IMG/VR virus record: IMGVR_UViG_3300025401_000648
Origin: a virus
Lineage: Duplodnaviria; Caudoviricetes
Reading direction: 5' to 3' (one strand)
Length of the DNA: 64,000 bases
Shown: positions 37,270 to 40,690 of the stretch, in pieces
Position numbering within the stretch: the first letter of the stretch is position 1
Layout of the letters: each line of letters opens with the position of its first letter
Program-made: the position numbers and the translations under genes
The notes under the pieces: model-generated
What the model saw: only the letters and a program-made list of their open reading frames with translations
What the model was told of the DNA's origin: nothing
Database searches by the model: none

Positions 37270-37344
37270 TGGCGCCGTGGATGGGACTCGAACCCACCTG
37301 ATACTGATAGACAATCAGTTGCCCTCCCCGAGGACTACCACGGC
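37270..37344 (-). tRNA. trnD: tRNA-Asp(GTC)
   Basis: GCCGTGG acceptor stem, ACTGA-TTGTCTA-TCAGT anticodon arm, TTCGAGT T-loop, encoded CCA. Confidence 0.92.
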
Positions 37345-37420: not shown

Positions 37421-37611
37421 GTTAGAAAAGAACTAAAGGAACTCCGGACTACTTGCTCTATACCGTCTATAGTGCTAGTGCCTTCGTCATTACTGCCTGC
37501 CTTATCCGCCGTTGCTCGAGGCCTTCATGCCCTGGATACCAGGTACCCGTCGGTACGCTTCCATCTCTCCAGGCGCCTAGCGGTGTAGGTAACCTTTAAT
37601 GCTTTCCTAAC
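37421..37611 (-). ncRNA. Candidate 191-nt structured ncRNA co-transcribed with tRNA-Asp
   Basis: End pairing GTTAGGAAAG/CTTTTCTAAC and ATTAAAGG/CCTTTAGT, inner CTAC/GTAG, GCTAG/CTAGC, several hairpins; own promoter. Confidence 0.65.
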
Positions 37612-39222: not shown

Positions 39223-39251
39223 TTGACACAGAGCCAGTACTGCGCTATAAT
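39223..39251 (+). promoter_or_regulatory. Early promoter (right arm of divergent pair)
   Basis: TTGACA-17-TATAAT plus ACACACTTACACTAAAAGGAG leader. Confidence 0.85.
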
Positions 39252-39279
39252 ACACACTTACACTAAAAGGAGTACTAAA

Positions 39280-39519
39280 ATGGGTCAATACGCTAACACA
39301 GTAAACGCATACGCTATGTCCGCCGCTCGCGCAAAAGTATACACTATGCAAAACACGCTACAGAGCTACGGTCAGACCGCTTATATGCTAAATGTAAGCA
39401 CAGCCAAGTTCCGTAAGGACATCGAAGCTAAAAAAGTAAAATTTATTGCCCTATTGGAAAAAGAGCGTGTTGCGCAATTACAACAAGAGCTGGCACGTTT
39501 ACAAGCAAAAACTGCTTGA
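39280..39519 (+). CDS. Early hypothetical coiled-coil protein
   Basis: Start reassigned to ATG 39280 after AAGGAG. Confidence 0.7.
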   Translation: MGQYANTVNAYAMSAARAKVYTMQNTLQSYGQTAYMLNVSTAKFRKDIEAKKVKFIALLEKERVAQLQQELARLQAKTA

Positions 39520-39545
39520 CATCTCGCCCCGAAAGGGCGTATAAT
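39516..39545 (+). promoter_or_regulatory. Early promoter cassette
   Basis: TTGACA-18-TATAAT; spacer hairpin CGCCC-CGAAA-GGGCG. Confidence 0.8.
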
Positions 39546-39571
39546 ACACACTTAAACACTAAAGGAGCACT

Positions 39572-39796
39572 ATGTCAAAAGCACTTAACAAACGCATTGC
39601 CGACGCCTTCGCTACAATTTACGACCAGGGCGATAACGGACTAGAGTACATGGACGGCCACACTGCGCTGGACCCGGCTCTAATGGAGCACTTTTACAAT
39701 GACACAGTAGAGACACTGTCTAAAGCAGATCGCACCCGCATGGCCCTAATGTTGGAGACCATTGCCAGCGATATGGACATGGACTTAGAGTGTTAA
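39572..39796 (+). CDS. Early hypothetical protein
   Basis: Own promoter and AAGGAG RBS. Confidence 0.75.
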   Translation: MSKALNKRIADAFATIYDQGDNGLEYMDGHTALDPALMEHFYNDTVETLSKADRTRMALMLETIASDMDMDLEC

Positions 39797-39830
39797 AAGT
39801 GATGGGGACTAGGTCCCCTATACACTAGTA

Positions 39831-40010
39831 CAGCACGTGAGCAAGTATCTCCATGCTGTCCCGCCTCGCTTGTTCCTGCTGTGATCAAGCTCACCACTAG
39901 CCTTAACCTGTTAGAGTTTAGGTCACGAGTTCGGACTGTGTGCGCCGGATCTATGATCACTAGCTCAATGTGATTTAGCTGACCCGACGGACTCTAACCT
40001 CCTGATCAGC
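39831..40010 (-). ncRNA. Candidate structured ncRNA downstream of tRNA-Ile
   Basis: Nested helices 39878-89/40001-10, 39910-17/39991-98, 39921-25/39980-84, hairpin 39831-58; G.U pairs favour - strand. Confidence 0.55.
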
Positions 40011-40053
40011 ATCACACATCTTTATCCACTGGTCCTACGGTTTATCAAACATT

Positions 40054-40131
40054 TGGTGGGCCGTCTTGGAGTCGAACCAAGCACCAATGGATTATGAGTC
40101 CACTGCTCTAACCAACATGAGCTAACGGCCC
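40054..40131 (-). tRNA. trnI: tRNA-Ile2(CAT) (lysidine type; Met less likely)
   Basis: GGGCCGT acceptor stem, GTGGA-CTCATAA-TCCAT anticodon arm, A73-CCA; resembles bacterial Ile2 rather than fMet/Met. Confidence 0.85.
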
Positions 40132-40690
40132 TATATACACTCTATACACTCTATACAGCGGGGTTTTTCTTGCATGCAAGAACTTAGACTACGAGCTCCT
40201 GTTGCTGAATCCACTATATACAGTGTGTATTAGTATCTTAGTCTATGTACTTATTATACACGGACGCCACGGTGTGAGCAATCAGGAAGTTGTTGACACC
40301 GTTGTACACACGCAACACTAGGGTAAAATAATGGTAGAAAAATTGTGAAGAAAACACGAGAAATCCCAGTCTAATCCTGGTGTGAAAATGGTGAGAAATG
40401 GTGGAGAATCATGGTGTTCTAGCGGGGTTTTTGGTGTGAAACAGTGCCTAAACTAGGGATTTTTGGCTAAAATTTTTTTGGATGGGTGGAGTCACCGTCG
40501 GCTATAGTCAAATGGTCCGTTGAAGATTCAGTCAAAATCCGTTGAAGATTCACCAGTTCTTCACCAATTCTTCAGTCTGAATCCCGTCACAATCTTCACC
40601 AAGTTTCTACCCGTTCTTCAACTGCTTACAGCGGGGTTTTCACACTGGATGATGCTGTCCGCGCTGAGTTCGTACAGCGGGGTTTTTACG
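40130..40690. repeat. Non-coding repeat-rich region (origin candidate)
   Basis: AGCGGGGTTTT x4 (40157, 40421, 40630, 40677), TATACACTC tandem, TGGTG..GAA tracts inverted against TTCTTCACCA tracts. Confidence 0.6.
40253..40281 (-). promoter_or_regulatory. Promoter for tRNA-Ile transcript
   Basis: TTGCTC-17-TATAAT. Confidence 0.6.

Follow-up and report, generated by a model that had tools for sequence, protein, structure and literature searches.

The 257 nt that lie 3' of a tRNA gene with anticodon CAT in an uncultured jumbo phage show no sign of a folded RNA gene apart from two hairpins at their end. Within the stretch of DNA that was analysed, 64,000 nucleotides referred to here as the window, this region (positions 39797-40053) is non-coding, does not fold significantly better than its shuffled counterparts, is conserved in a single close relative, and occupies a slot whose content changes from one related phage to another. 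The reading that we favour, to which an even chance can be given, takes the region as an ordinary 3' trailer that is transcribed as part of the tRNA(CAT) unit, with end hairpins that keep two convergent early units apart and a body of lineage-specific filler, in a slot prone to recombination. The phage is a distant relative of Pseudomonas phage PA5oct, with 53% identity between the large terminases (TerL), and the contigs related to the window are largely of freshwater (lake) metagenome origin.

Two tRNAs, both on the minus strand, were detected in the window by ARAGORN and Rfam: a tRNA-Asp (37270-37344) and the tRNA(CAT), whose surroundings are given in Table 1 together with comparisons to L014, a related locus. 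The geometry described in an earlier note on this DNA, with the trailer 3' of tRNA(CAT) on the minus strand and converging on the plus-strand gene at 39572, was found to be correct, and the early region around the trailer is dense in perfect TTGACA-17-TATAAT promoters. The convergent gene encodes a 74-aa protein that has 213 homologues in metagenomes, with the identical protein encoded on 35 contigs and relatives at 82-93%. The promoter assigned to the tRNA(CAT) unit belongs to an early-promoter repeat family (D3) but has only three of six consensus matches in its -35 box, so that it is missing from a consensus promoter scan. Its identity in L014 is 95%, the same promoter type precedes tRNA(CAT) in L035 and L015, and by its sequence it is likely to be active. 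For the leader, identity with L014 drops to 75% and a deletion of 11 nt is seen; a perfect 16-nt palindrome in the leader (TTCTTGCATGCAAGAA, 40167-40182), adjoining a AAAACCCCGC motif, is disrupted in L014.

Table 1. Coordinates of the tRNA(CAT) unit and of the convergent gene in the window
Feature	Position	Strand	Description
Promoter candidate of tRNA(CAT) unit	40253..40281	-	TTGCTC, 17 nt, TATAAT, then AAGTACATAGAC
Leader, ~115 nt	40132..40246	-	One AAAACCCCGCTGTA motif; TATA-rich repeats directly before tRNA
tRNA, anticodon CAT, encoded CCA end	40054..40131	-	ARAGORN; Rfam tRNA 61.2 bits
Trailer body	39860..40053	-	Non-coding, lineage-specific, fold not significant; holds H1 (39967-40020) and three TGATCA palindromes
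Hairpin H3	39829..39859	either	ACAGCAUG/CGUGCUGU stem, 11 bp, 7-nt loop, -14.2 kcal/mol
Hairpin H4, GGGGAC-CUA-GUCCCC (39804-39818), then AUCACUUUUA	39795..39818	-	Terminator scan; stem kept in L014
Convergent 74-aa early gene	39572..39796	+	Perfect-consensus promoters 39223-39251 and 39516-39545

The tRNA(CAT) itself is 100% identical in L014 and 87% identical in the related loci G002 and G003. Its G1-C72 pair identifies it as not being of the initiator type, and it carries C4-G69 and C5-G68, which we take to be marks for the lysidine enzyme TilS; from these marks it may be a tRNA-Ile2, as the earlier note had assumed. G002 also has a 12-tRNA cluster with a further tRNA(CAT).

The description of the region as a tRNA trailer stands, in that it belongs to a tRNA(CAT) unit that is preceded by a conserved promoter of its own and closed by a terminator-like hairpin. 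Transcription by host RNA polymerase would begin from the sigma-70-type promoter at ca. 40253-40281 and produce, in this order, the leader of ca. 115 nt, tRNA(CAT) and the 250-nt trailer. It would stop at 39818-39795, where a small GC hairpin and a short U-run lie opposite the converging plus-strand operon, which ends at 39796. The tRNA would be released by host tRNA-processing enzymes, and an AU-rich stretch is found directly past its CCA end, where the trailer starts. Both of the stems that the earlier note had singled out at the far end, one of CAGCATG/CGTGCTG type (H3) and the GGGGAC hairpin (H4), are present. H4 starts 7 nt past the stop codon of the convergent gene. Read on the minus strand, its stem has 6 bp, 5 of them GC, and encloses a 3-nt loop, and four U follow after a 5-nt gap. 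No U-run is found on the plus strand, and H4 resembles a terminator in the minus direction only. The stability of H3 is about equal on the two strands. Together, H3 and H4 would act as transcription stop and 3'-end block between the convergent units, and the remaining ca. 190 nt would be filler with no structure-dependent job, in a slot that is probably rewritten by recombination.

The folding analysis argues against a structure of the trailer as a whole. Its minimum free energy (MFE) on the minus strand is -80.5 kcal/mol, to be compared with a shuffle mean of -74.2 (z = -1.35), and 19 of 200 dinucleotide shuffles were as stable, so that the structured non-coding RNA or processing element previously proposed did not come through a check against shuffled controls. 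Folding is somewhat better on the tRNA strand, as had been claimed, the plus strand giving -68.3 kcal/mol (z = -0.68), and the minus strand is the more stable one in most 100-nt sliding windows. The MFE structure has an ensemble frequency of 0.0024, and in the centroid the middle domain is lost, together with most of the outer stem enclosing H1. Sliding 100-nt windows along the minus strand gave z values from ca. +0.9 to -2.7, mostly from -0.9 to -1.9; those over the trailer were no stronger than those over the tRNA itself, and the sliding-window z is therefore a blunt measure. Hairpins cut out by hand scored better (H1, which is specific to the minus strand, z = -3.7; H3, z = -3.7; H4, z = -2.5) than the middle domain alone (z = -1.15), but with a correction for window choice, 4% of the shuffles equalled the top 31-nt hairpin and 8% the top 54-nt hairpin. 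Three nested long-range helices had also been drawn; prediction returned a single long-range helix, of 4 bp. The outer helix of the middle domain consists of two paired GATC palindromes, and any two of the TGATCA sites at 39882, 39954 and 40003 are able to pair, which explains in part the nested helices. A search of Rfam 15, also suggested earlier, rendered no match to the trailer at the gathering threshold, nor at E <= 10, either within 3.8 kb or with 267 nt alone; the gathering threshold was reached by the two tRNAs only.

Using the neighbouring 74-aa protein as anchor, 38 metagenome loci and 2 viral loci were fetched. Among 51 loci, the trailer is present in L014 only, with 97.3% identity over 258 nt, and the conservation expected of a functional RNA was thus not found beyond this single relative. 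Exact-pattern scans of viral contigs with four pieces of the trailer were empty for three of them and gave for the fourth a 20-nt chance match in an unrelated contig; two pieces compared with bacterial and archaeal genomes, as a test of capture from a host, had no match, and neither did scans of promoter-plus-tRNA patterns. Distant blastn against cultured phages returned matches to the tRNA only, and no relative of a neighbouring 197-aa protein was found in viral contigs. Covariance models of the two main domains (R1 and R2), run on 221 kb of relatives, recovered only the window and L014, and with filters off they found no match in the alternative trailers of other loci. As a partial positive control, the stretch upstream of tRNA-Asp does match L029 at the nucleotide level (E 2e-5) in the same set of loci. 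The trailer is, as the earlier note stated, unrelated in sequence to the candidate RNA at 37421.

The comparison with L014 involves seven differences, i.e., six substitutions in 257 nt and a 1-nt insertion in the H3 loop. Four of them, including the insertion, are unpaired, and the three that fall in predicted pairs keep the pairing (U-G to C-G, G-C to G-U and U-A to U-G); all three are one-sided and none is double-sided, in a single relative at 97%. The chance that no pair would be broken is p = 0.056 by simulation, and the fold energy of L014 is within the best 9.6% of random mutants. These observations are a hint, not evidence. The divergence of the trailer is also below that of the synonymous sites of neighbouring genes (pS 0.06-0.25; Fisher p 0.08 to 0.006), but this signal of constraint is confounded, since the differences between the window and L014 are patchy and the low-divergence block extends from ca. 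39680, within the coding gene, to 40137. The differences from L014 in the 74-aa gene are clustered, with 18 of them in 39575-39625 and 39680-39765 free of any, and such a mosaic points to a recombination event within the gene. A recent recombination tract would explain the low divergence of the trailer equally well as selection.

The position behind tRNA(CAT) is, judging from these loci, hypervariable, because four other contents follow the tRNA in relatives and, in addition, a protein gene is found in a comparable slot in L018-L020. In G002 and G003, the orthologous tRNA (87%) comes directly after a gene and is followed, 3 bases past the CCA, by a classical terminator and then by the next promoter, and thus the tRNA can be made without the trailer. 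In L034 and L035, the same promoter and tRNA precede eight perfect TTATCCACA DnaA boxes that all lie within ca. 230 nt, a cluster that looks like an origin or a DnaA-titrating site; the eight boxes are all on one strand (L034:940-1180 and L035:400-640). In L016, AT-rich tatagtata repeats that end in TACAGCGGGGTTTT come after the tRNA. L015 is syntenic with the window, with a homologue of the 197-aa protein (53%), an iteron tract, the promoter, tRNA(CAT), a trailer of ca. 310 nt, a terminator and a convergent gene, but its trailer is unrelated in sequence to that of the window. In L018-L020, where a similar iteron tract and promoter lead up to the slot, it contains no tRNA but a small protein gene, which is bracketed by two AAAACCCCGCTGTAG-plus-TATA-rich motifs (L018:540-1210, also L019 and L020). 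The AAAACCCCGCTGTAG motif may be a joint for module swapping or a protein-binding site. AAAACCCCGCTGTAG and TATA-rich repeats also adjoin the tRNA trailer in L016:290-330.

It can also be the case that the trailer is a real lineage-specific stable non-coding RNA, cut just past the CCA, protected by the 3' hairpins and acting in trans as a sponge, decoy or regulator. We hold this as a tentative possibility, on the unlikely side. Its parallels would be the stable RNAs encoded in the tRNA cluster of T4 and, at a distance of 2.5 kb, the candidate RNA that precedes tRNA-Asp, and there is a precedent in the ORF-less transcripts of PA5oct. The location of the trailer in a promoter-to-terminator unit with no ORF, the better folding of the minus strand across most 100-nt windows, the intact pairs in L014 (with the p value given above) and a divergence under that of nearby synonymous sites would all be in agreement with it. 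So would the syntenic trailer of L015 (L015:1458-1775), which folds with z = -3.4 and with 0 of 100 shuffles as good. Part of that stability comes from TATA-rich palindromes and a strong terminator; by this folding result, the trailer of L015 may be a better candidate for a non-coding RNA than that of the window. Against an RNA function in the window stand the overall z of -1.35 and the poorly defined ensemble, the lack of homologues by sequence or structure model beyond one 97% relative, the unrelated sequence at the syntenic L015 locus, the G002/G003 tRNA that works with no trailer at all, and the mosaic block that confounds the signal of conservation. In a wider form, the trailer would be a young regulatory RNA of this lineage, cut from the tRNA(CAT) precursor, and stand-alone tRNA units would be launch pads for fast-evolving non-coding RNAs, with one such RNA ahead of tRNA-Asp and others, varying with the lineage, behind tRNA(CAT); we regard this as rather improbable.

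A role of the trailer as DNA, i.e., as part of an iteron-rich control region (40132-40685) that would serve as a replication origin or as a platform for protein binding, was considered as well and appears quite unlikely. The non-coding region of 550 nt upstream of the tRNA promoter does contain TGGTGAAGA-type iterons, and the centre of this region (40500-40600) is only ca. 50% identical in L014. AGCGGGGTTTT occurs in four same-strand copies (40157, 40421, 40630 and 40676) and nowhere else in the 64 kb. Iteron-like repeats and AGCGGGGTTTT copies flank the tRNA in the window; tracts similar to these are found in L015, L018 and L035, and the eight perfect TTATCCACA boxes of L034 and L035 stand directly after tRNA(CAT). 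L035 has, in addition, four tandem CATTGTGGCAGAA repeats upstream of the tRNA promoter. The trailer also has three TGATCA and four GATC sites within 125 nt. However, four GATC in 125 nt are unremarkable, since GATC is enriched throughout the window (268 sites vs. 183 expected; TGATCA, 41 vs. 24) and similar clusters occur elsewhere in it. This GATC excess, unusual for a phage, suggests that there is no pressure from a GATC-cutting defence or that the phage or its host has a Dam-type methylase. Inside the trailer there is a single DnaA box, matching TTATNCACA at 8 of 9 positions (40022-40030), with a box count in the window that is at chance level, no internal repeats were found, the GC content is about 50% (0.44-0.55) with no AT-rich tract, and GC skew simply follows the strand of the genes. 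An origin element based on DnaA boxes in the trailer itself is not supported, in view of the one imperfect box, the lack of repeats and the ordinary GC content.

The absence of a credible ORF in ca. 250 nt, as had been reported, holds for 39797-40053. The longest frames of the trailer have no start codon and no ribosome-binding site, and they are broken by the 1-nt indel in L014, the sole relative with this trailer. Six-frame translations had no match in the 51 related loci, and the longest frame had no Pfam match and no word-index match among 5.8 billion proteins. What that frame does match are only NHL-repeat propellers, through summed weak repeats, the E = 1e-12 to a 2809-aa protein corresponding to 8 NHL-type repeats, and the differences from L014 within the frame fall at codon positions 2, 3, 1 and 2. 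A protein-coding gene, a small peptide or a pseudogene was rejected because of the lack of start and ribosome-binding site, the L014 indel and the lack of homologues. There is very little likelihood that the trailer body represents a decayed gene or further tRNA genes, left after a plus-strand island (39223-39800) was inserted or inverted: early modules are shuffled at promoter cassettes in these phages, as in L018, and the tRNA and the 74-aa gene, convergent and 257 nt apart in the window, are in G002 separated by 3.1 kb with small genes, and seem to share one strand there, but the translations match nothing in the related loci, the longest frame matches nothing in Pfam or the word index, the propeller matches are sums of weak repeats, the codon positions of the L014 differences are those just given, and no tRNA-like match was found at E <= 10. 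Extra ARAGORN calls appeared only at a 60% threshold, at which one call also falls inside a coding gene, and a decayed tRNA was rejected on this basis.

Taken as an ordinary trailer with end hairpins, the region gives a mostly negative outcome, namely that a multi-helix fold drawn by hand in 250 nt of non-coding phage DNA is not above shuffled sequences and is due in part to short palindromes, and a new RNA family should not be claimed for the trailer. As a by-product, the slot behind tRNA(CAT) in these freshwater jumbo phages is seen to be hypervariable and to adjoin an iteron-rich control region, and the DnaA-box cluster that one lineage has there is a better lead when their replication or control region is sought. 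If the trailer did yield a discrete RNA product, the slot would be an example of rapid turnover of tRNA-linked non-coding RNAs.

Several known systems can be compared with the trailer. The 3'ETS-leuZ of Escherichia coli is the 3' external transcribed spacer of a tRNA operon, which ends in an intrinsic terminator and also acts as an sRNA sponge. Like it, the trailer is a predicted non-coding tail after a tRNA, which would be freed by 3' processing and which ends in a hairpin and a U-run; unlike it, the trailer is far longer than 3'ETS-leuZ, in its putative terminator 5 nt separate the stem from a run of just four U, and no partner RNA or Hfq-type site is known for it. In T4, rnaC and rnaD are the stable RNAs of species 1 and 2 of the tRNA gene cluster, of unknown function. 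The trailer resembles them as an ORF-less stretch with predicted co-transcription with a phage tRNA, but rnaC and rnaD are discrete RNAs that have been seen experimentally, whereas the trailer is a predicted RNA with neither a significant fold nor conservation.

In PA5oct, four ORF-less transcripts of 236-619 nt (ncRNA001-004) were found by RNA-seq (PMC7318152). This phage is the closest cultured lineage (by its TerL, 53%), relies on the polymerase of its host and transcribes ORF-less stretches whose size is similar to that of the trailer; unlike the trailer, ncRNA001 and ncRNA002 have no annotated tRNA in the stretches retrieved around them, and the structure models of the trailer gave only chance-level scores at these two loci. 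With regard to the slot rather than the RNA, Arbiol and colleagues reportedly described in 2010 PeSL-type promoter cassettes through which T4-type phages reshuffle their early modules. The locus studied here is similar to such cassettes in that the content behind tRNA(CAT) varies among relatives and the promoter and the flanking motifs are kept.
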